Below are positions 3,677-29,940 of a DNA stretch of 64,000 bases, one piece after another. The stretch lies in assembly GCF_024223415.1 (NCBI RefSeq), contig NZ_CP100500.1. One strand, 5' to 3'. The notes beneath the pieces are model-generated. The model saw nothing but the letters and a program-made list of their open reading frames with translations. It was not told the origin of the DNA and did not search any database. The DNA is from Escherichia coli (GTDB lineage: Bacteria > Pseudomonadota > Gammaproteobacteria > Enterobacterales > Enterobacteriaceae). The first letter of the stretch is position 1; each line of letters opens with the position of its first letter. The translations under genes and the position numbers were made by a program.

Positions 3677-6166
3677 ATGGAGTTCGTCAGAGACTGGCAA
3701 AAACCGCGCCCCGCTATCGGGCGCGAAGGCTTACCCGTACCTGAAACCGCACTGGATACCATCCTGAAGTGTTACCGCGCGGACGAAGAGCGCGCCCTGA
3801 ACGCTGAAGAGCAGGGTCATCCGCTTGCGGGCACAACCATCGGTAACGCGATCGACAAGTGGGAAGGCGCACAGGAGCGCCAGGAAGAGGCCATCACGCT
3901 CACACAGGAAGCGAAGAGACGCCCACCCACCCTCATTGAGGAAACCCTCAAAGAGCTGGACACCCTGCCAAAGTGGTTGAGGCTGCCACTGATTAAGCAC
4001 CTGAACTTCTTAAGGCGCAAACAGGAGGACGAACAGCAGAAAGGCAAACGCGGCAAGGACACCCGCAAATACGAGCGCTTCGTACAGAACGGGATCCCCG
4101 CACGTCTTTGCCGTATTCGTGAGATTAACGATCGCTTTGCACCGTTGAGTTTTCAGGCCGCTGCCATGCGCGAGAGTCTGGAAGAGTTAATCACACTGCC
4201 GAACCTGAGCCGTGAACGCATCCAGAAAATAGCCGTACTGCTTGCCAGCGCCGTTAAAATGCATCTTGCCGACGCAATGGACAAGGCCCGCGAAATAACA
4301 GGGAACGACAAAGACGACAACCTGAACAACTGGCTGATTGCCTACCAGTATATTGGTCGCCGTGTCCTGAAGCTGGGGATCACCCCACCATACTGGAGCG
4401 CCCTTGAACTCCGTCCCGACCGCAGAAGCCCCCCGGACCTGACACTGGTACCGGGCGCTGTTTTGCGCCTGAACGACGCCGAATGGTGGAATAAAAAACT
4501 TCGCCAGATGCACGACGTCTGGCGTGAGGAACTTTTACGTGCAGCGGGCCTTGTATCCCGCCAGACCTCCATTTATGTGAGCCGGGAAGCACTGGCAGAC
4601 TTCCGCGAGAAACAGGCCCGTACCCGCGATTTTCTCAAAGCGCACGACGTGGAGAACGAAGACGGCGAACGCATCAGCCTGGAAGATATCTACTACACCA
4701 GTACATCCAACCCGCATAACCGCCGCAACGAGATGATGGCGTGCGTCAAGGGAATGGAGCTTATCGCACAGGAACGTGGCGACGTGGCCTTCTTCGTCAC
4801 GGTCACAGCCCCGTCTCGTTTTCACAGCGTCACCGACGCCGGTACCCTTAACCCGAAATACAAAGGCACAACAGTAAAAGACGCCAGCGACTATCTGGTT
4901 TATAACTTCTTCGCCTCCGCCCGCAAACTCATCAAAAAAGAGAAGCGGGGCTGGTACGGCATTCGCACCGTTGAGCCTCACCACGACGGCACGCCCCACT
5001 GGCACATGCTGGTATTCACAAGCCCCGAGAACGAAGCGCGCATCACGGAAATCATGTGCAATGCCGCCATCCGTGAAGACCGTGCAGAGCTGGGCGACGA
5101 CATTACCCCGCGCTTCAAGTGCGAGAAGATAGACCCCGAAAAAGGTACGCCAACCAGCTACATCGCCACCTACATCGGCAAAGGCATTGACGCCGCCGCA
5201 TTCGGCGACACGGATCCCAAAACAGGCAAACCGCCCGTTGACCACGAAAGCGGAAAACCTATGGCGGACACCGTGGAAAACGCCGTCGCCTGGGCACGCC
5301 TGCATCGCATTCGCCAGTTCCAGTTCTTTGGCCTTCCCTCACGTCAGGTGTGGCGCGAGTTCCGCCGCCTTGCCGGACAAATGGCACGCAACCCGAAGGG
5401 GCCGCAGGCACTGACCAACCCCAAAGCCGACGCTCTGCTGGCCGCCGCCGACGTGGGGTGTTTTGCCAGCTACATTATGCATCAGGGCGGCGTGCTCATT
5501 CCCCGCAGTGAATATCTGGCCCGCACGGCCTACGTCACCGCAGAAGAGCCGAACAACTACGGCGAGTTCCCCGACCGTATTTACGGTGTACGGATGCCGG
5601 AACTGGGCGATGAGTTCACGTTATGTACCCACCCGGAAGAGTGGAAACTCGTCAGAAAAGAACCGGAATCAGACGACCGCACGGGCGAGGGTTTTGACCT
5701 TCAGGGCGACCCCGTCGCCCCTTGGACTCGTGGCAATAACTGTCACCCTGACGAAAAAACAACCAACAACAGCACACAAACCGGACAGTCAGAGTGGGCA
5801 AAACTGCCCCCCTTACCCCCATCGTCGGACGGTTTTGTGAGCTGGTTTAAGTCGCTTAAGAGGCCGGACAGGAAAAAACTACAAAGATTGCTCAAAAAAC
5901 GCACCGAAGAGAGTCGCCAGAACGCCAGCGGCGGCACCGACACACCCACCGACACCATTAACCTGGGCGTTGTGCTGCCGGAACTGCCGGAAATCGTGCA
6001 AGTCCGCCGCGATCTGGAAGCGCTGGGCGCGGACTTCCCCGAAGCAATGGCCCATTCCGTCTTTATGGGTGCCCGCGTTCGTCTGGGTAACGGTCGCACC
6101 GTTCACCGCGACGAGCAGACCGGGCGCATCACCGTCACCAGTCTGCAACCGGAGGCGAAACCATGA
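3677..6166 (+). CDS. rolling-circle replication initiator, P2 gpA-like (829 aa)
   Basis: Large ORF with AGGAGG Shine-Dalgarno; contains the HWHMLVF histidine-hydrophobic motif typical of P2 A-type endonucleases. Confidence 0.85.
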   Translation: MEFVRDWQKPRPAIGREGLPVPETALDTILKCYRADEERALNAEEQGHPLAGTTIGNAIDKWEGAQERQEEAITLTQEAKRRPPTLIEETLKELDTLPKWLRLPLIKHLNFLRRKQEDEQQKGKRGKDTRKYERFVQNGIPARLCRIREINDRFAPLSFQAAAMRESLEELITLPNLSRERIQKIAVLLASAVKMHLADAMDKAREITGNDKDDNLNNWLIAYQYIGRRVLKLGITPPYWSALELRPDRRSPPDLTLVPGAVLRLNDAEWWNKKLRQMHDVWREELLRAAGLVSRQTSIYVSREALADFREKQARTRDFLKAHDVENEDGERISLEDIYYTSTSNPHNRRNEMMACVKGMELIAQERGDVAFFVTVTAPSRFHSVTDAGTLNPKYKGTTVKDASDYLVYNFFASARKLIKKEKRGWYGIRTVEPHHDGTPHWHMLVFTSPENEARITEIMCNAAIREDRAELGDDITPRFKCEKIDPEKGTPTSYIATYIGKGIDAAAFGDTDPKTGKPPVDHESGKPMADTVENAVAWARLHRIRQFQFFGLPSRQVWREFRRLAGQMARNPKGPQALTNPKADALLAAADVGCFASYIMHQGGVLIPRSEYLARTAYVTAEEPNNYGEFPDRIYGVRMPELGDEFTLCTHPEEWKLVRKEPESDDRTGEGFDLQGDPVAPWTRGNNCHPDEKTTNNSTQTGQSEWAKLPPLPPSSDGFVSWFKSLKRPDRKKLQRLLKKRTEESRQNASGGTDTPTDTINLGVVLPELPEIVQVRRDLEALGADFPEAMAHSVFMGARVRLGNGRTVHRDEQTGRITVTSLQPEAKP

Positions 6167-6573
6167 ACCGTTATCATTGTGTACTGCCGCGCCACTACTT
6201 CGGTCAGATTATGCGCTCGCGTATTCCGGCGGTCACGCTGCGAAACCTGAGCACGGTACCGCAGCCGGGCGATGAGCTGGAAATCGCCGTAGCAGGCCCT
6301 GACCGTTCAGCCAGCTGCGTGACCGCCGACGTGCTGAACGCCGTGCCCGTAGGTGGTGACTGGCTGGTTGCCATCCGCTTCCGCCAAGACCCGTTCGCAC
6401 CTGAACCGCTCACCCCCGCAGGCCGCATCATGCAGAACTGGCGGGATGAAGGCGCGAAGGCGAACTGCGAAAAACTGATTAACAGGATTGCCACGACAAA
6501 CCGACATGCCGCGCTGGCGCGCCGGATATACCCCGCAAAACCGACACAACCAACAGGAGTAAAACGCCCATGA
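6163..6573 (+). CDS. hypothetical protein coupled to gene A (136 aa)
   Basis: Start ATG overlaps the gene A stop (ATGA); last gene before the cargo island. Confidence 0.5.
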   Translation: MNRYHCVLPRHYFGQIMRSRIPAVTLRNLSTVPQPGDELEIAVAGPDRSASCVTADVLNAVPVGGDWLVAIRFRQDPFAPEPLTPAGRIMQNWRDEGAKANCEKLINRIATTNRHAALARRIYPAKPTQPTGVKRP

Positions 6574-6709
6574 AAAGAATCGCCGGAACCCACAGAGACA
6601 CAAAAAGACACCAAAAGCAGCAAAGACACATTGAATAAACGAAAACTGGTGATATGATTTGTTCAAAGATGTTATGATTTATTCATAAGTAACCTTTCAG
6701 GCTTAAGTT

Positions 6710-7084
6710 ATGAATAAACAGGATTTTGGACTTGATACCCTTTTGAGTATGCATGGTTACCAGCATCACATGGATAACGGGTACTGGTGGAAAATTAAGG
6801 CTTACCGGGTAAGTCCAAGTCCGTTCAGACCTCACGGGATACGCTACAATCTGACGTTACATGACCGCTACAATTCGCGTGTGTTTGGTATGGACAACGC
6901 ACATGGAATAAAACCGCCAAAGAAGGGAAGATTTACAGGAAAGTTAACTGTTTATGATCATGTGCACCGTACCCCGGTGGATAAAGGTTATCCCTATGAG
7001 TTTGTATCCGCAGAACAATTGTTATCTGATTTCTTTGATAACGTTGATCGGCTCATTAACGAAGTTACAAAGGGGAAAGCATGA
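6710..7084 (+). CDS. uncharacterised His-rich small protein (124 aa), first gene of cargo operon
   Basis: ORF follows an AT-rich promoter-like region with direct repeats (6640-6705); stop overlaps downstream start; no recognisable family. Confidence 0.6.
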   Translation: MNKQDFGLDTLLSMHGYQHHMDNGYWWKIKAYRVSPSPFRPHGIRYNLTLHDRYNSRVFGMDNAHGIKPPKKGRFTGKLTVYDHVHRTPVDKGYPYEFVSAEQLLSDFFDNVDRLINEVTKGKA

Positions 7085-7467
7085 AAGCCCGCATCGGGAT
7101 CATCCCGGAAAAAGTCCTGCGTCAGCGCCTGATTGAAATTGCCAAGGGGGAGCGGAAACCACACCCCGACGAGCCAAGGGTATGGTTTTCATCCATCAAT
7201 GCGGCGGGTCAGGCGCTGAGCAATGAAAATATCTCCCTTCTTCGTCTTATGGATGAGGAGAAACCGCAGACCATGACCGAACTTGCGGAGTTATCCGGCA
7301 GAAAACTGAGTAACCTGTCTGTAACCCTGAAAATGCTGAGCAGCTACGGTTTTGTCAGTCTGGAAAAGAAAGGAAATACCGTACACCCGAAGGCACTTTT
7401 TACCGATTTTGAAATCATCGTTGATCCGTCCGTCGGTTCAGTACATCGCGCCACCGCCCGCCCCTGA
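7081..7467 (+). CDS. uncharacterised protein with predicted winged helix-turn-helix (128 aa), second gene of cargo operon
   Basis: ATGA overlap with upstream ORF; segment TMTELAELSGRKLSNLSVTLKMLSSYGFVSLEK resembles MarR/ArsR-type wHTH; followed by hairpin terminator. Confidence 0.6.
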   Translation: MKARIGIIPEKVLRQRLIEIAKGERKPHPDEPRVWFSSINAAGQALSNENISLLRLMDEEKPQTMTELAELSGRKLSNLSVTLKMLSSYGFVSLEKKGNTVHPKALFTDFEIIVDPSVGSVHRATARP

Positions 7468-7480
7468 AGTGTGCAATAAA

Positions 7481-7505
7481 CAGCCCCGGTCGGGGCTGTT
7501 TTTTA
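7481..7505. terminator. bidirectional intrinsic terminator between convergent cargo operons
   Basis: GC hairpin CAGCCCCGGTCGGGGCTG flanked by T-run on the + strand and A/T-run on the - strand. Confidence 0.6.
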
Positions 7506-7877
7506 TTCCAGAATCAGCTGTTCAGGTGTGCAGCCGTACAGTCTGGCAAGGCGCTCAATATTTGCCCTGCGCGGGCGTTCTGTTCTTTCGAATTCGGACA
7601 CGGTAGCCTGCCTGATACCCAGCGCATCCGCCACCTGCTTTTGCGTCATTCCGCGATAGATTCGCCACGCCGCCTGCATGGTGCAGCCACGTTCCGAGAG
7701 GATGTTGACCACCTCGTTGGGATACAGCGTATCAGGCGATGCACTCGGTTCGTTCTGGACGTCCTCGTAGAGTTCGTCAAGGTCGCTGTCTCCTGCCAGT
7801 TTTTCAAACAACGCCACTGGCAGAATGACGGATACCCTGTTACCCGCACCGTCAGTAATAAACTGAATCTGACTCAT
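7503..7877 (-). CDS. XRE-family HTH protein, HigA-like antitoxin candidate (124 aa)
   Basis: AGGAGG Shine-Dalgarno 6 nt upstream; C-terminal HTH MTQKQVADALGIRQATVSEFE; downstream of a RelE/ParE-like ORF. Confidence 0.65.
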   Translation of the reverse strand: MSQIQFITDGAGNRVSVILPVALFEKLAGDSDLDELYEDVQNEPSASPDTLYPNEVVNILSERGCTMQAAWRIYRGMTQKQVADALGIRQATVSEFERTERPRRANIERLARLYGCTPEQLILE

Positions 7878-7950: not shown

Positions 7951-8223
7951 TTAGTATGTTGTCGAGGTTCTCCGCTGAATACGGAGGATCCTGATAACCA
8001 CTATCTGCCCTCCCTCAATCGTGAACCTGACACGGTAATGATTTACCCTGAGTCTGTACTCCCCGCCCGAGTCAGTGAGCTTTTTAATATCCAGATTCTG
8101 GAACTTCGGATAGCCATAAAGCGCGTTAACTTTCTCGCGTAAGGATTTCTGATCCCTCGCTGGCAAAACCCGTAAATCTTTGATTGCCCGAGGGGTCCAC
8201 ATGATTTCAGTCGTCATAAACAC
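7951..8223 (-). CDS. RelE/ParE-superfamily toxin-like protein (about 83-90 aa; start at 8223, 8217 or 8202)
   Basis: C-terminal EYRLRVNHYRVRFTIEGGQIVVIRILRIQRR matches the RelE/ParE pattern; toxin-first (HigB/HigA-like) order. Confidence 0.6.
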   Translation of the reverse strand: MFMTTEIMWTPRAIKDLRVLPARDQKSLREKVNALYGYPKFQNLDIKKLTDSGGEYRLRVNHYRVRFTIEGGQIVVIRILRIQRRTSTTY

Positions 8224-8268
8224 ACCGGAAGCAAATTATTAAAGAGCCGTGCCCGCTGGCACACCTTA

Positions 8269-8297
8269 AATATAGGTTTTAACCCCTATATTGTCAA
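8269..8297 (-). promoter_or_regulatory. sigma70 promoter (TTGACA-N17-TATATT) with overlapping inverted repeat, upstream of the toxin/HTH pair
   Basis: Near-consensus -35/-10 on the minus strand; ATATAGG/CCTATAT inverted repeats overlap the promoter, consistent with an autoregulatory operator. Confidence 0.5.
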
Positions 8298-8806
8298 ACA
8301 AAATCCCTATATCATGAAGTAAAAAAGCACCTCCCGCGACCTCCCTTTCCGGTGCACGAAAGTGCACAAATTTGCACAATTTTTTTGAACGACTTTTTGC
8401 CCTTCCGGCCCGTGTGGCGTCTGGATCCGTCGGGGATCCGTGCGTGCACGAAAAAAGGCCTTTTTCTGCGCGCAGGTGACGGGGGAACAGCCCGCGTTTC
8501 AGGGGGTAAATAGCATTCCCTGAACGATGTTGCAGTGACACAACAGAATGGCTGTATTTCTCACGCTGAGCGTGAAAAAGACGTAAGGGCTTTTGATTTG
8601 ATGGGGTGAAAGATAAGGCCGTCAAAATCGCACTGAGGCAGCGAGAATATGTCGTCAGAGTTGCGGGGTTGCGTAAGCATCCGCCCGGCGATGATGGCTA
8701 CAGGGCTGGAGATGTTGTGAAATTATCTGAAGGAATAACCAGCTTGCAGGAGAACCCGGGCAAAGTCAGAATAGCGGCAGGCATCAACTCAAAAGAGGAT
8801 AATGTC

Positions 8807-9310
8807 ATGAGCCACTTTAATGATTTATGCCAGATCAATCGTGAAGCTGAAGAAAAACGCGCTGAGGCAGCTCAAATTTTGCGGGATGAAGCGGCAAGGC
8901 TGATTGATTTCTATGAAGAATGGCTGGGGCTTCCATCCATGTACTGGGAAGACGATGATGGCGACCTGCACCGCTACGTGGAGACAGGCTTGCCATGTAA
9001 GACAGCGGCGGATTTTAGTCCTCTTTCAGTCCACAATATCGCATCTGCACCAGACAATATTTTCCGCATGGCCGTACGAACCTGGGTTAAGTCATCTGAC
9101 AGCAGCTACCCGGTAAGCGTGGTTATTGCACTTGAATTATATTCAGTAGATGCGGAACGGGTGTCTCTGAGAGTCCGGGTGGAAGACGATATTTCTGTTC
9201 GCGTATTTATCAATAAACCCAGCGAAGAAGCCTGGGGCGATGTTGTTATGCACATGAAAAAGCACATCGCTAATCACCTGAAAAAGCGAGCGCCATCAGC
9301 ACTTCGTTAA
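8807..9310 (+). CDS. hypothetical cargo protein (167 aa from the ATG with Shine-Dalgarno; track ORF begins at 8606)
   Basis: AGAGGA Shine-Dalgarno 7 nt before ATG at 8807; followed by hairpin terminator GGGGCATAAA/TTTATGCCCC. Confidence 0.5.
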   Translation: MSHFNDLCQINREAEEKRAEAAQILRDEAARLIDFYEEWLGLPSMYWEDDDGDLHRYVETGLPCKTAADFSPLSVHNIASAPDNIFRMAVRTWVKSSDSSYPVSVVIALELYSVDAERVSLRVRVEDDISVRVFINKPSEEAWGDVVMHMKKHIANHLKKRAPSALR

Positions 9311-9376
9311 GCAGAGCTGGAGAGTCGGGGCATAAATTTTTTATGCCCCGGCGAAGCAGCAGACAAGCGAAGCGCG

Positions 9377-10432
9377 TCAGGATATGGGCCGGGTGTCTAA
9401 CAGTGCGTAAGGGTTAAAACGGATCACCTCTTCGCCCAGCCAGTCGTTGACGTGTTTCATTGCTTCCATGACGGGCATCAGTTCGTTAATGGCAAACACA
9501 CGGGCTGCCTTCTCCACATCCCCGAATGACCCCTTCTCACCCGGCATGGCCCCCATCAGCTGAGGTGGCACGCGGTGCACAGCCAGCACGTCATCACGCG
9601 ATGCGGCCTTGACGTTCATGAACTCATCCTTTGCGGTGATTTGCTGAAACGGCAAAATCTGTACGCCATCCTTACCACCTCCCGCCGCGTGGATGAGCAG
9701 ATTTTTAAACGCCCCGCCACCACGCGCGCTTTGCAGCGTTTCCCGCAGTTTTTCCATGCTTTCACGGTCAACCTGCGCCGCACCGATGTAGACAATACAG
9801 CCCGCGTGTGAGCCGTTATCGTAGTAGAGCTTGCGGAAGATATCGGCGGAATGTGACAGGCTGGCAGACAGCAGGCCGCCCAGGTAATCCGGCATCCCGT
9901 AAATCTCCTGGTTGATATCAGGATTCATCAGGTGGCATATCGTCCCCTCACGAAAGCGGTACTCTTCCTGTCCTTCCTGTATATACCACCATGATTTCAT
10001 ATCGCTGCCACGTCGCATGTATTTCGCCAGCGCCCGGCGCAGGGCCAGCGGTTCGCCAAGCATGTTGCGCCGCAGCTCAAGACAGGCATTACCGAACACA
10101 AACCAGTCCATCGCCACCCCGGCGAACTCCTGGCGGGACAGCAGAGGATGTGGAATATAGCAGCCCAGCAGCACATTACGTTTGAAGCTGAGCGCCGACT
10201 GGTGCCAGGACGTCTGGCGGGCAGCCCGTGCCAGTCCGTACCAGTCAACGGGCGTTTCAAACCACCGCCCGTTGTCGGCGCAGTACATGCTGTCCAGCAG
10301 GTCGGCCCCTGACAGCCGGTAAGGTCCTTCAAACGTGAAGGCACTCAGTGTCGGGTCGCTTCGCAGGGAATCCGCAAGGCTGCCCTGCGCTGCGCGGGCG
10401 TTCGTACGTCGTTGTTTATTTTTTCTGCTCAT
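9377..10432 (-). CDS. portal protein (P2 gpQ-like, 351 aa)
   Basis: Size and position immediately downstream of the terminase ATPase gene on the same strand, as in the P2 PQ operon. Confidence 0.75.
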   Translation of the reverse strand: MSRKNKQRRTNARAAQGSLADSLRSDPTLSAFTFEGPYRLSGADLLDSMYCADNGRWFETPVDWYGLARAARQTSWHQSALSFKRNVLLGCYIPHPLLSRQEFAGVAMDWFVFGNACLELRRNMLGEPLALRRALAKYMRRGSDMKSWWYIQEGQEEYRFREGTICHLMNPDINQEIYGMPDYLGGLLSASLSHSADIFRKLYYDNGSHAGCIVYIGAAQVDRESMEKLRETLQSARGGGAFKNLLIHAAGGGKDGVQILPFQQITAKDEFMNVKAASRDDVLAVHRVPPQLMGAMPGEKGSFGDVEKAARVFAINELMPVMEAMKHVNDWLGEEVIRFNPYALLDTRPIS

Positions 10433-12183
10433 CAGAACTCCGTAACACTGAAGGGGGCGGCATCATGTTCACCGCCGACAGGTTCGTTGATAACGGCCAG
10501 CATGGTGGCCCATGCAAGATCGCCATGGCTTACGCCTCTTGCGCGATCTGTTTCGTAGGTGATAAATCCGGCCTGCGTTTTTGTTTTGCGTACCGCGTTA
10601 AAGGCGCTCACCAGTTCGCGCTCGCTGCGGTCGTACTCCCACCGCCCGGCGCGCATGAGCTGCAGCATCTTCAGAACCAGCGTGCGCTTTGATGACAGGG
10701 TGAAGGTGTAGGGAATGGCTGCCGGAAAAAAGCGCTTCACAATCTGATACACCGCATCCCCGTGACCGCCGGTTACGTCAATACCGATATGCTCAACGTT
10801 ATAGCGAAAGGTGAACTCTTCAATGACCTTCGCCTGCGCCTCAAACTCCAGCCCCTGCACCCGCCGCGTCTCCACGGTGCGAAAACGCCCGCCCGGTACG
10901 GCTGGCGGCACCACCACGACAACCGCCCCGCTGTCACCGTTCCCGCTACTGCCGTTGGCGTCGTACCCAATCCACACAGGGCGGTTCCCCATCGGACGCG
11001 GTGCAAACGGCTTCCAGTCCGGCCACTCGTCGTATCCGTCAACACCGCAGCCAATCAGGATATTCAGGTTAAATGCCGATTCCCCTTCGCGAGCAAATTC
11101 ACACATGTAGAGATTGCGGAACTCGTCTTCAGTGTTATTGCGCCGGATTTTGTCAATGTTGGTTAACGTCCATCCCTGACTGACCACATCTTCCAGCGTC
11201 ACAATTTGCCGCCAGATATAGTCAGGACAGATAAGGCCGTTATGAAGCGCATTCCAGCTCACATCAAAATGCTGACGTTTATGAGTACGAAGCCCTTCAT
11301 TCCAGTGATCGCCGTTCCAGTATGCATACGCCTCATGTGTTTCACTTGATGGCGTGGAAAAATAGGTACACCGCAAACCATCCAGCGTTGCCATAGCAGC
11401 AGCCACCTTGCGCAGCTCTGCGAAACGCCCCGTCCAGAAAAACTCATCAAAATACAGATTCCCTGTGTACGCTTGCGCGGTGGCCGCAGAAGTGCCGAGA
11501 AAATGCAGCTCTGCACCGTTGGAGAGGATGACTTTATCGCCCCCTTTCAGTTCCACATCAACTTCAGATGCAGCCTTCTGAATAATGCTTTTAAACTGGA
11601 GCGCCTGACGACGAGACGCAGACAAAAAAATCTGGTTACGCTGGTAAGGTTGTGCCACATCGTCACGCAGCGCCATCAGCAGCGCTTCCTGCGCAAAATA
11701 CCAGGTCGCCCCAATCTGGCGGGATTTCAGGATCATCCTGTCAGTAATTCCGGCACGCTCACAGGCACCGATAGCATCAAGCCATTTGCGCTGGTGTCCG
11801 GCCAGCCTGTCGGTAATTTTTTCCCGCAGCGCCGCGATCTGTTCCGGCGTGAAATGATTTTTGCGTTTTTTCGCCCGGCCTTTCTTTCCTGTTGCCGTCT
11901 CATCCGGCAGACCGTCATGCAGCTTTTTAAGCTGACGGGTCAGCAAATCAATTTCCTTAAAGTCCCCGCCTGTTTTATTCTGTTTTTCCGTGAGCTGAAT
12001 GAGTCGCGCATCCATGGACTGCGTGACACGCTGAACCGGGGGCGTCTCATCCCACTGGTCGCGTTTTTTCCACGAATGGATCGTGTTCTGGTTGATACCC
12101 ATAAGGCGGCAAATTTCCGCAACAGGGTAACCCTGCCAGTACAGCTGGCGTGCCCGCTGGCGAACAAATGTATCCTGAATCAT
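10432..12183 (-). CDS. terminase large (ATPase) subunit (P2 gpP-like, 583 aa)
   Basis: Walker-A-like LKSRQIGATWYFAQEAL and size; divergent from the scaffold/capsid operon. Confidence 0.85.
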   Translation of the reverse strand: MIQDTFVRQRARQLYWQGYPVAEICRLMGINQNTIHSWKKRDQWDETPPVQRVTQSMDARLIQLTEKQNKTGGDFKEIDLLTRQLKKLHDGLPDETATGKKGRAKKRKNHFTPEQIAALREKITDRLAGHQRKWLDAIGACERAGITDRMILKSRQIGATWYFAQEALLMALRDDVAQPYQRNQIFLSASRRQALQFKSIIQKAASEVDVELKGGDKVILSNGAELHFLGTSAATAQAYTGNLYFDEFFWTGRFAELRKVAAAMATLDGLRCTYFSTPSSETHEAYAYWNGDHWNEGLRTHKRQHFDVSWNALHNGLICPDYIWRQIVTLEDVVSQGWTLTNIDKIRRNNTEDEFRNLYMCEFAREGESAFNLNILIGCGVDGYDEWPDWKPFAPRPMGNRPVWIGYDANGSSGNGDSGAVVVVVPPAVPGGRFRTVETRRVQGLEFEAQAKVIEEFTFRYNVEHIGIDVTGGHGDAVYQIVKRFFPAAIPYTFTLSSKRTLVLKMLQLMRAGRWEYDRSERELVSAFNAVRKTKTQAGFITYETDRARGVSHGDLAWATMLAVINEPVGGEHDAAPFSVTEF

Positions 12184-12248: not shown

Positions 12249-12266
12249 TGTCGGCATTCGCTTACA
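12249..12266. promoter_or_regulatory. TGT-N12-ACA dyad (Ogr/Delta-type late activator site) between divergent P and O genes
   Basis: TGTcggcattcgcttACA lies between the terminase and scaffold genes, about 55 bp from plausible start sites on both strands. Confidence 0.4.
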
Positions 12267-14344: not shown

Positions 14345-15127
14345 ATGCTGACACCGGCACAGGCTCATTTCCAGCGCGTGATGGCTTTACGGGCAGGAAC
14401 GGCAGCAGAAAACGAGGATATCGTGGCCCGCACGGCTCATGAGCAGGTCCTTCACCGTCTGCGCCTGGCACAGCAACGCATAAAGGGCGTCCAGGCAAAA
14501 GCGGCAAAGGCCGCGCTCAAGCGTGAAATGCTGCCGGGTTTTGCAGGCTGGATAGACGGCACGCTGGAAGCCGACGGCGGACAGCAGGATGAGGTGATAG
14601 CCACACTCATGGTGTGGGCCGTGGACTGTGGCGACCTGGCGCTTGCACTGCGCATCGGGGATTATGTGGTTCGCCACAACCTCACGATGCCTGACAACTT
14701 CGGGCGTACGGCAGCCACGGTACTGACCGAGGAAATCTGCAACCCTGTTCTGACACAGGCCGGAACGGATGCACACGCCGATTTGTCCGGCTACATCGAA
14801 CCGCTGGACACCCTCTGGCAAATTGTCGCGAACCGGGACATGCCCGATGAGGTCCGCGCCAAGCTGTGCAAGGCATGCGCCTTTGCCCGTCGTGGCCTGA
14901 CCGATGCCGACAGCATGGCGGTGAGTCTGAAGCTGTTCCGTGAGGCAATGCACCTTAACCCGAATGCGGGGGTAAAACGTGAGATTGCCACGCTTTCACG
15001 GGCCCTGAAAAAGGCCGGACAGGATGAAGCCGCTGCCGCACAGGAGCCTGCGGCACAGAAAGATACAACCAGAGAACAGACCACGACGCCGAAGGCGAAA
15101 GCGAAAGCGAAGGCGAAACGTGGTTAA
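14345..15127 (+). CDS. terminase small/endonuclease subunit (P2 gpM-like, 260 aa)
   Basis: Position; GAGGAGG Shine-Dalgarno; Ala/Lys-rich C-terminus. Confidence 0.65.
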   Translation: MLTPAQAHFQRVMALRAGTAAENEDIVARTAHEQVLHRLRLAQQRIKGVQAKAAKAALKREMLPGFAGWIDGTLEADGGQQDEVIATLMVWAVDCGDLALALRIGDYVVRHNLTMPDNFGRTAATVLTEEICNPVLTQAGTDAHADLSGYIEPLDTLWQIVANRDMPDEVRAKLCKACAFARRGLTDADSMAVSLKLFREAMHLNPNAGVKREIATLSRALKKAGQDEAAAAQEPAAQKDTTREQTTTPKAKAKAKAKRG

Positions 15128-29922: not shown

Positions 29923-29940
29923 TGTCTCCTGACAGCGACA
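29923..29940. promoter_or_regulatory. TGT-N12-ACA dyad (candidate Ogr site) between divergent FI and D genes
   Basis: TGTctcctgacagcgACA lies about 55 bp from plausible start sites for both FI (minus) and D (plus). Confidence 0.4.

Follow-up and report, generated by a model that had tools for sequence, protein, structure and literature searches.

P2-like phages possess a conserved cohesive-end site (cos) region of 55 bp with G+C-rich 5' ends of 19-20 nt (PMC3931495; PMC5247547), and this conserved core is credited to Ziermann and Calendar (1990), as that work is cited in later papers (PMC3931495; PMC5247547; PMC9122126). In P2, cos is placed between gpA and gpQ (PMC9122126), and the gpA-gpQ interval of P2-like phages has been described as a hotspot near cos in which accessory and anti-phage genes are found (Rousset et al. 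2022, PMC9122126). The stretch considered here, positions 8298-9310 of 64,000 nt of Escherichia coli DNA (the whole of which is called the window), belongs to a P2-family (Peduoviridae), P88-like prophage of E. coli whose genes are arranged as in P2. It consists of about 500 bp of noncoding DNA followed by an open reading frame (ORF) of 167 amino acids (aa) that lies next to the portal gene. Most likely, the stretch first read as a structured leader is the cos of this prophage, and the adjoining 167-aa ORF is a separately inserted accessory gene.

The proposed cos module and its counterparts in P2, 186 and P4

The segment 8352-8500 most likely represents a cos module, because its register of short boxes is shared with P2, 186 and P4 and is kept in divergent loci, and because conservation among E. 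coli genomes starts at 8353. Three TGCAC boxes on the + strand, spaced by 10 bp, lie at 8353, 8363 and 8373 (element 8352..8388), and box 3 is followed on the same strand by a T-run, AATTTTTTTGA (8378-8388). The left part of the cos core (8444..8474, + strand) begins with a fourth box, GTGCACGAAAAAA, whose TGCAC is at 8445, and continues with the palindrome GAAAAAAGGCCTTTTTC (8450-8466, + strand) and with TGCGCGCA (8467-8474, + strand), which adjoins the predicted top-strand nick. The predicted 19-nt cohesive end, GGTGACGGGGGAACAGCCC, then occupies 8475-8493 on the + strand, a placement that should hold to within a nucleotide or two, and this 19-mer occurs only once in the window. Relative to 8475, the four TGCAC boxes are found at -122, -112, -102 and -30. 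Four boxes in a P2-type register were obtained in none of 2000 dinucleotide shuffles of 8224-9376, and three boxes in 20 of the 2000. The spacer between box 3 and box 4 (8389..8443), which contains a GGATCC-N5-GGATCC repeat (8423-8439), is kept only inside the P88-type group, and more distant lineages show no conservation there. All five strings quoted in the original prediction are present, namely GTGCACGAAAGTGCAC (8352-8367), GTGCACAAATTTGCAC (8362-8377), GGATCCGTCGGGGATCC (8423-8439), GTGCGTGCACGAAAAAAGG (8440-8458) and a G-rich stretch placed at about 8480, which corresponds to 8475-8493.

The annotated cos sites of P2, 186 and P4 were taken as reference ends, with all offsets counted from the first base of the 19-nt cohesive end. 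These references carry TGCAT boxes at -123/-124, -111, -101 and -29. The window resembles them in its four TGCA-centred boxes at about -123, -111, -101 and -29, in its position between gpA-side cargo and the portal gene Q, in a GCGCGC element beside a nick and, as far as P2 and 186 are concerned, in the G skew of the noncoding DNA that separates cos from the portal terminator. It differs from all three in the last letter of the box (TGCAC rather than TGCAT) and in the T-run after box 3, which is missing at that place in the references. Among the references themselves, P2-P4 homology spans exactly -29..+25 (52/55 identical), in agreement with the published 55-bp conserved cos region (PMC3931495; PMC5247547), and 186-P4 homology spans -129..+25 (120/147 identical) and covers the three distal boxes. 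Moreover, P4-like satellites of E. coli whose psu-cos DNA is only about 71% identical to that of P4 retain the 19-mer together with the distal and proximal boxes.

A loose resemblance of the G-rich stretch to the cohesive end of P2 and 186 had been noted in the original prediction, and alignment to P2, 186 and P4 bears it out: GGTGACGGGGGAACAGCCC shares 13 of its 19 positions with the P2 cos 19-mer without gaps, both are 74% G+C, and both stand in the same box register. The window 19-mer is related to the P2-type G+C-rich end of 19-20 nt, GGCGAGGCGGGGAAAGCAC, a similarity that is weak when taken alone. An intermediate form, GGTGACGGGGGGAAAGCCC, occurs in a more distant E. coli prophage (L011), where it matches P2 at 15 of 19 positions and bridges both forms. 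Free local alignment of the 700-bp junction regions paired P4 -7..+22 with window -7..+21 (24/28 identical), with a score that is not significant alone. Of the core of about 55 bp, the window has the parts, namely box 4 at -30, the palindrome, the 19-mer and the GCGCGC element, but GCGCGC and palindrome follow an order unlike that of P2 and there is little sequence identity beyond the 19-mer. The DNA from box 4 to the 19-mer has the A/T palindrome GAAAAAAGGCCTTTTTC in place of the GC-rich hairpin of P2. The window reads TGCGCGCA and then G, and this context, GCGCGCA followed by GGTG, is similar to that of the bottom-strand nick in P2, GCGCGCA followed by GTG; both alignments of the core set the top-strand nick at 8474/8475. 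The gpM and gpP proteins are 37% and 46% identical to their P2 counterparts, respectively, a divergence that fits a diverged recognition sequence.

It is predicted that the terminase (gpP with gpM) would cut around 8475-8493 with a 19-nt stagger, generating the cohesive ends of the virion DNA, and the overhang is taken to be 5', as in P2. In this scheme, three boxes one helical turn apart would lie about 120-100 bp before the cut and a fourth box about 30 bp before it, followed by the palindrome, TGCGCGCA and the 19-mer. The boxes are most likely recognition sites of the terminase. Architecture and conservation of the module are observed directly; the cutting, the nick positions and the protein that would bind the boxes are predicted from the sequence.

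The register has been followed through related loci by scanning IMG/VR for TGCGCGCAGGTGACGGGGG, which yielded 120 loci with 100 unique sequences. Boxes stand at -123/-113/-103 in 65-71 of the 100 unique loci, including loci with unrelated flanks, and box 4 stands at -31/-30 in 94 of them; of the 100, 35 have flanks with no more than 41-51% identity to the window. Either gpA or the portal gene, or both, could be recognized in 118 of the 120 loci, and in all 118 the motif is located upstream of the portal gene, towards gpA. Among complete E. coli genomes, the 8353-8730 stretch is present in 1140 of 5426, and the alignments start at 8353 (query position 14), which is the first box, the DNA upstream of it being variable cargo.

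Several points weigh against placing a cos here. The 100 loci were gathered by exact match to the 19-nt core pattern, and since this core was the search key its conservation arises by construction, leaving the boxes and their offsets as the only independent observations. The likeness of the 19-mer to P2 is weak alone, as stated above, and the best local alignment between P2 and the window is a chance match elsewhere. The TGCGCGC element lies upstream of the 19-mer in the window and downstream of it in P2, which means that the core is not simply collinear with that of P2 and that the nicks could be a few bases off. Whereas the ends of P2, 186 and P4 have been mapped, those of the P88-type lineage are predicted from sequence, and no deposited phage record of the lineage starts at the predicted 19-mer. 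Record starts were rejected as evidence for the ends, since P884B11 (LR595891) begins at the equivalent of window 8398, within the spacer, and other records begin at arbitrary positions. Contig ends near the motif in IMG/VR were likewise of no use, being scattered (19, 24, 41, 78, 109 ... bp) rather than coincident, which is consistent with assembly breaks and not with termini. A P4-like satellite sharing the window cos type was not found, in which the window differs from P2, 186 and P4: none of the 120 IMG/VR loci carries P4 psu, sid, delta, alpha or int, and the P4-like elements of E. coli, divergent ones included, carry a P2-type cos. In the literature searched, GGTGACGGGGG was not found in a phage context, and the papers found on P88 or Xuanwuvirus do not describe cos.

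Some occurrences of the window-type cos are unusual in their setting. One IMG/VR locus (L042, IMGVR_UViG_2609459919_000002) contains two complete tandem cos modules, at 873-891 and 1165-1183, 292 bp apart; in the first module the distal boxes are degenerate and the 19-mer is a variant. This tandem arrangement looks like a recombination scar at cos; recombination at cos as a route of hotspot exchange is a speculation in the hotspot study (PMC9122126). The window cos region is also found in "plasmid" records of phage-genome size, NZ_CP148288.1 (34.5 kb), NZ_CP049283.1 (26.8 kb), NC_015969.1 (32.6 kb) and NZ_CP030205.1 (33.5 kb), which probably represent P2-like phages whose circular genomes were assembled as episomes. 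Two plasmids of Arsenophonus nasoniae share the three-box segment only (33 nt, 94% identity).

Transcriptional readings and the left-end noncoding DNA

The boxes have also been considered as transcriptional elements, that is, as a terminator or operator array insulating the variable cargo from the left end. Boxes 2 and 3 can form a hairpin followed by AATTTTTTT, and together with the T-run they scored as terminator-like on the + strand in a terminator scan; the cargo genes of many relatives, moreover, are transcribed toward the box position. However, the equally placed boxes of P2, 186 and P4 have no T-run behind box 3, and the fourth box is located 70 bp further on and therefore cannot belong to a terminator made of boxes 2 and 3. 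The boxes keep a constant distance to the 19-mer and not to the cargo, of which both orientation and content vary, and they are retained by P4-like satellites. A transcriptional array is thus very unlikely as an explanation of the boxes, although they may have a dual role, as terminator plus cos element. Least probable of all the readings weighed here is that 8298-8806 forms a structured 5' leader, or an independent noncoding RNA (ncRNA), controlling the 167-aa ORF. Local palindromes are indeed present (GGATCC-N5-GGATCC, CACGCTGAGCGTG and CAGGGGG..CCCTG), and the left-end region between cos and the portal terminator (8494..8730, 237 bp, G-rich on the top strand) shows about 90% column conservation among 63 unique P88-type loci without any coding signal. 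The dense secondary structure that had been claimed for this DNA nevertheless did not go beyond chance, with RNA folding z-scores of -1.48 (+ strand), -1.66 (- strand) and -1.76 (8494-8735), and 5 to 11 shuffles folding equally well or better. Searching Rfam 15 at a permissive E-value gave no family at its gathering score, the sole match being gyrA RNA with 22 bits (vs a gathering score of 45), located on the portal hairpin. In addition, the conserved stretch is present without the ORF in about 98% of related prophages, P88 and its relatives among them, and hence cannot be the leader of the 167-aa gene, which sits in an insert starting at 8731 and carries its own 76-nt upstream segment into other contexts. 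The idea of a leader of about 500 bp is accordingly abandoned, and of the options left open in the original prediction (a cos site, an ncRNA or both) the cos site is upheld by the register and its conservation, whereas the ncRNA is not sustained by Rfam or by folding.

Another reading concerns a dyad, TGTTGCAGTGACACAACA (8528-8545), which lies 35 bp past the predicted cos end and fits TGT-N12-ACA. It could be an Ogr-type late-activator site serving a rightward late promoter from about 8591, a proposal compatible with cos at its proposed position; P88-type phages would then make a short late RNA, and the inserted ORF would be expressed as a late gene in the window. In P2, the annotated activator site has its centre 55 bp before the start of the O operon, the TGT-N12-ACA pattern recurs in the window prophage between genes P and O (12249-12266) and close to where the sheath gene starts (29923-29940), and the TGT and ACA of the dyad occur at the same offset in 57 near-group loci. 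The pattern is, however, not enriched in the window (12 matches vs 14.1 expected) and is absent in more distant lineages (37 loci), no acceptable -10 element was seen at the required distance from the dyad when the sequence was read by eye, and the two inner positions of the dyad vary independently and not jointly. A late promoter at this place is considered unlikely.

Next to the proposed cos, the conserved left-end DNA (8494-8730) may itself be a further part of the packaging signal. Its GC skew is +0.28, compared with +0.40 in the equivalents of P2 (20-160) and 186 (20-164) and with +0.22 to +0.32 in other lineages. An excess of G over C on the top strand inside the left end is common to all lineages examined, without sequence similarity between lineages. 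The left-end noncoding DNA amounts to 237 bp plus the cassette described below in the window, vs about 140 bp in P2. Small ORFs are annotated across the cos region in P88 and others. The sole candidate gene in this DNA, the reading frame starting with GTG at 8606 (annotated as 42 aa in P88), was rejected on three grounds: among the 63 unique relatives its variable columns are distributed 19/21/19 by codon position, without periodicity, its start varies between GTG, TTG, GTA, GTT and ATG, and 8 of the 63 have it in truncated form. No conserved ORF was found within 8298-8806, in keeping with the earlier view that there is no convincing ORF before 8807.

The cassette at 8731-9314 and its 167-aa protein

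Alignment with P88 delimits an inserted cassette of about 585 bp on the + strand (8731..9314). P88 has 10 bp in its place, with sharp junctions from the left-end DNA to the portal hairpin, and in P88 and relatives the 8353-8730 stretch adjoins the portal gene without an ORF. About 26 of 1141 E. coli genomes with the window cos region carry the cassette; nine of these have the toxin-antitoxin cargo of the window and the others a different one, which indicates that the gene is not linked to the toxin module. The G+C content of the cassette is 48%, compared with 55-58% in neighbour genes. Its ORF runs from 8807 to 9310 on the + strand, and the start codon originally proposed, ATG 8807 with a good Shine-Dalgarno sequence, holds: AGAGGA lies at 8794-8799 on the + strand, 7 nt upstream of the ATG, and homologues down to 24-31% identity begin at the same MSHF residues, which marks ATG 8807 as the true start. 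Public annotations differ on this start, giving 234-236 aa (8606-9310), 197 aa (8717-9310) or 167 aa (8807-9310), and the longer versions run through the conserved noncoding left-end DNA.

Upstream of the ORF, the cassette has a plausible, weak sigma-70 promoter candidate of its own, composed of TTGCAG (8744-8749), a 17-nt spacer and CAGAAT (8767-8772) on the + strand. The gene keeps the 76 nt preceding its ATG in another locus, L140, where the DNA further upstream is unrelated; both hexamers are identical there and 17 nt apart, and 5 spacer positions are changed. These hexamers match the consensus at only 7 of 12 positions and were not called by a promoter scan. Downstream of the ORF, a perfect 11-bp stem is formed by the hairpin CGGGGCATAAA-TTT-TTTATGCCCCG (9326-9350, within the element 9315..9376), between the cassette and the portal stop codon at 9377. 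This hairpin had been taken as the terminator of the ORF, and as a structure it is confirmed; as the terminator of this ORF it is not, since it has no T-run, which is why the terminator scan did not flag it, and it stands at the same place in P88, P884B11 and 500465-2, which have no ORF. It presumably marks where the convergent portal/terminase operon ends and corresponds in position to P2 tQ, which is annotated 5 bp past gene Q.

The 167-aa ORF is most likely a dispensable accessory gene of the type called a moron, because its family recurs at accessory positions of P2-family prophages. Morons, a concept of Hendrix and colleagues, are said to be independent promoter-gene-terminator units inserted between conserved phage genes. 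The cassette resembles them in being sharply inserted relative to close relatives, in its lower G+C than the neighbouring genes, in having an upstream segment of its own with promoter-like hexamers and a hairpin behind the gene, and in occurring in a minority of near-identical prophages. It differs in that its promoter is a weak candidate (7/12) and in that the hairpin belongs to the recipient phage and not to the insert. Similarly, the ORF agrees with the hotspot of P2-like phages in lying inside the gpA-gpQ interval, but in P2 the classical cargo genes, old and tin, are found on the gpA side of cos, as is the toxin-antitoxin pair in the window, whereas the cassette is on the portal side, between cos and the terminator. 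The cos-portal gap is not treated separately as an insertion point in the hotspot study (PMC9122126).

The protein was originally described as an orphan of no recognizable family. It matches the PHROG 5091 profile over nearly its whole length (E 3e-52, residues 1-166 vs profile positions 2-163 of 164), and the family comprises 117 clusters at 50% identity, nearly all of 155-180 aa, with every retrieved name uninformative. Because PHROG 5091 is uncharacterised, membership in it gives no function. The gene is under purifying selection, as judged from a dN/dS of 0.14. Family members are followed by a convergent portal gene in 41 of 41 IMG/VR loci, and in 33 of the 41 the cos core motif lies just upstream. 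Three divergent variants of the family fill the same cos-portal gap. A variant of the family protein, 24% identical, lies between the portal hairpin and the portal stop codon (L033, 2461-3024; also ON470599, ON470623, PV340564 and PV468777); since the window member lies upstream of the hairpin, the gap must have been filled at least twice, with different junctions. A distant member of the family is located after ogr, beside a HicAB pair, which is another accessory position. A protein of 1449 aa (P0019) has eight separate stretches matching the centre of the family profile (positions 41-102), which suggests a repeated version of the first beta-hairpin motif.

An AlphaFold2 model of the 167-aa protein (pLDDT 84, pTM 0.78) has an N-terminal helix of 39 residues, an antiparallel sheet and a C-terminal helix, and the protein is soluble and mildly acidic, with a pI of 5.4. 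The conserved residues L40, L42, W47, Y57 and V58 are hydrophobic and structural and none is of catalytic type, which argues against an enzyme and suggests a binding or adaptor protein instead. Searches by sequence gave no Pfam family at E <= 10, either for this protein or for 54 family members, no NCBIfam match, no PADLOC family at E <= 0.1 and no PDB match below E 0.3, and the faint DinI/Tum-like character once ascribed to the C-terminus received no backing from them. Matches in AFDB50 were essentially only to uncharacterised proteins of Gammaproteobacteria, and BFVD gave none; tblastn against deposited phages returned no match, and neither WP_001354611 nor phrog_5091 was mentioned in the literature searched. 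It is tentatively proposed, as a possibility of rather low probability, that the cos-portal gap is a distinct insertion point of the hotspot and that PHROG 5091, which recurrently occupies it, is a new factor without enzymatic activity that acts against phages or in counter-defence, perhaps by binding a protein of the host or of a rival phage.

Prophage setting and meaning for the P88-type lineage

From the ORFs and RefSeq annotation, the gene order of the prophage is replication endonuclease, four cargo genes, a RelE toxin/helix-turn-helix (HTH) pair, the region studied here, portal and terminase. The replication endonuclease gene (gpA) occupies 3677-6166, according to the ORFs and to what RefSeq gives for an identical E. 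coli chromosome. The portal gene Q (9377-10432, minus strand, stop codon at 9377) and the large terminase gene P (10432-12183, from the ORFs and RefSeq annotation) are convergent with the studied region, and beyond the terminase the same sources place the GPO scaffold, the P2-family capsid protein and gpM (14345-15127). Among deposited phages, P88, phiSM, P884B11 and 500465-2 (Peduoviridae: Xuanwuvirus, Gemsvirus) come closest, with about 89% identity. E. coli CS5L (NZ_CP158311) carries the prophage with 100% identity over 8224-9376. The cargo on the gpA side of cos contains a toxin-antitoxin pair with the toxin first, namely a RelE/ParE-like toxin (7951-8223) and its HTH partner (7503-7877), both on the minus strand. 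The toxin promoter recognized in the original prediction was recovered as TTGACA-17-TATATT on the minus strand (8297..8269), matching 11 of 12 consensus positions. Three CCTATAT repeats, at 8270-8276 (inverted), 8285-8291 and 8306-8312, lie in the same toxin-antitoxin element (8269..8312) and look like operator sites. Promoter and repeats are part of the RelE/HTH cargo, which is the last variable element before cos, and not part of cos. The same arrangement of toxin-antitoxin cargo appears in a supplementary table of the hotspot study (PMC9122126). The cargo between gpA and this pair (6163-7467) includes a hypothetical protein of 136 aa and a DUF6516 protein (6710-7084) that overlaps an ArsR/CasR-like HTH regulator (7081-7467), the latter two looking like a second two-gene module; the PADLOC defence models gave no match for the 136-aa protein or the DUF6516 protein.

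Altogether, this is expected P2-family anatomy in a lineage whose cos annotation was not found, and current understanding is not overturned. The window cos region is nonetheless present in about one in five complete E. coli genomes, and no record or paper was found that marks its cohesive-end site. A definition by four boxes and the 19-mer would allow prophages to be oriented, their ends to be predicted and cos-based tools for transduction or phagemids to be designed, and it corrects ORF calls across cos as well as the extensions of the 167-aa gene to 197, 234 or 236 aa. The 167-aa protein itself is a reasonable, unproven candidate for screens of prophage defence and counter-defence. Lastly, the box register common to P2, 186, P4, divergent satellites and the window lineage points to a common geometry of terminase recognition.

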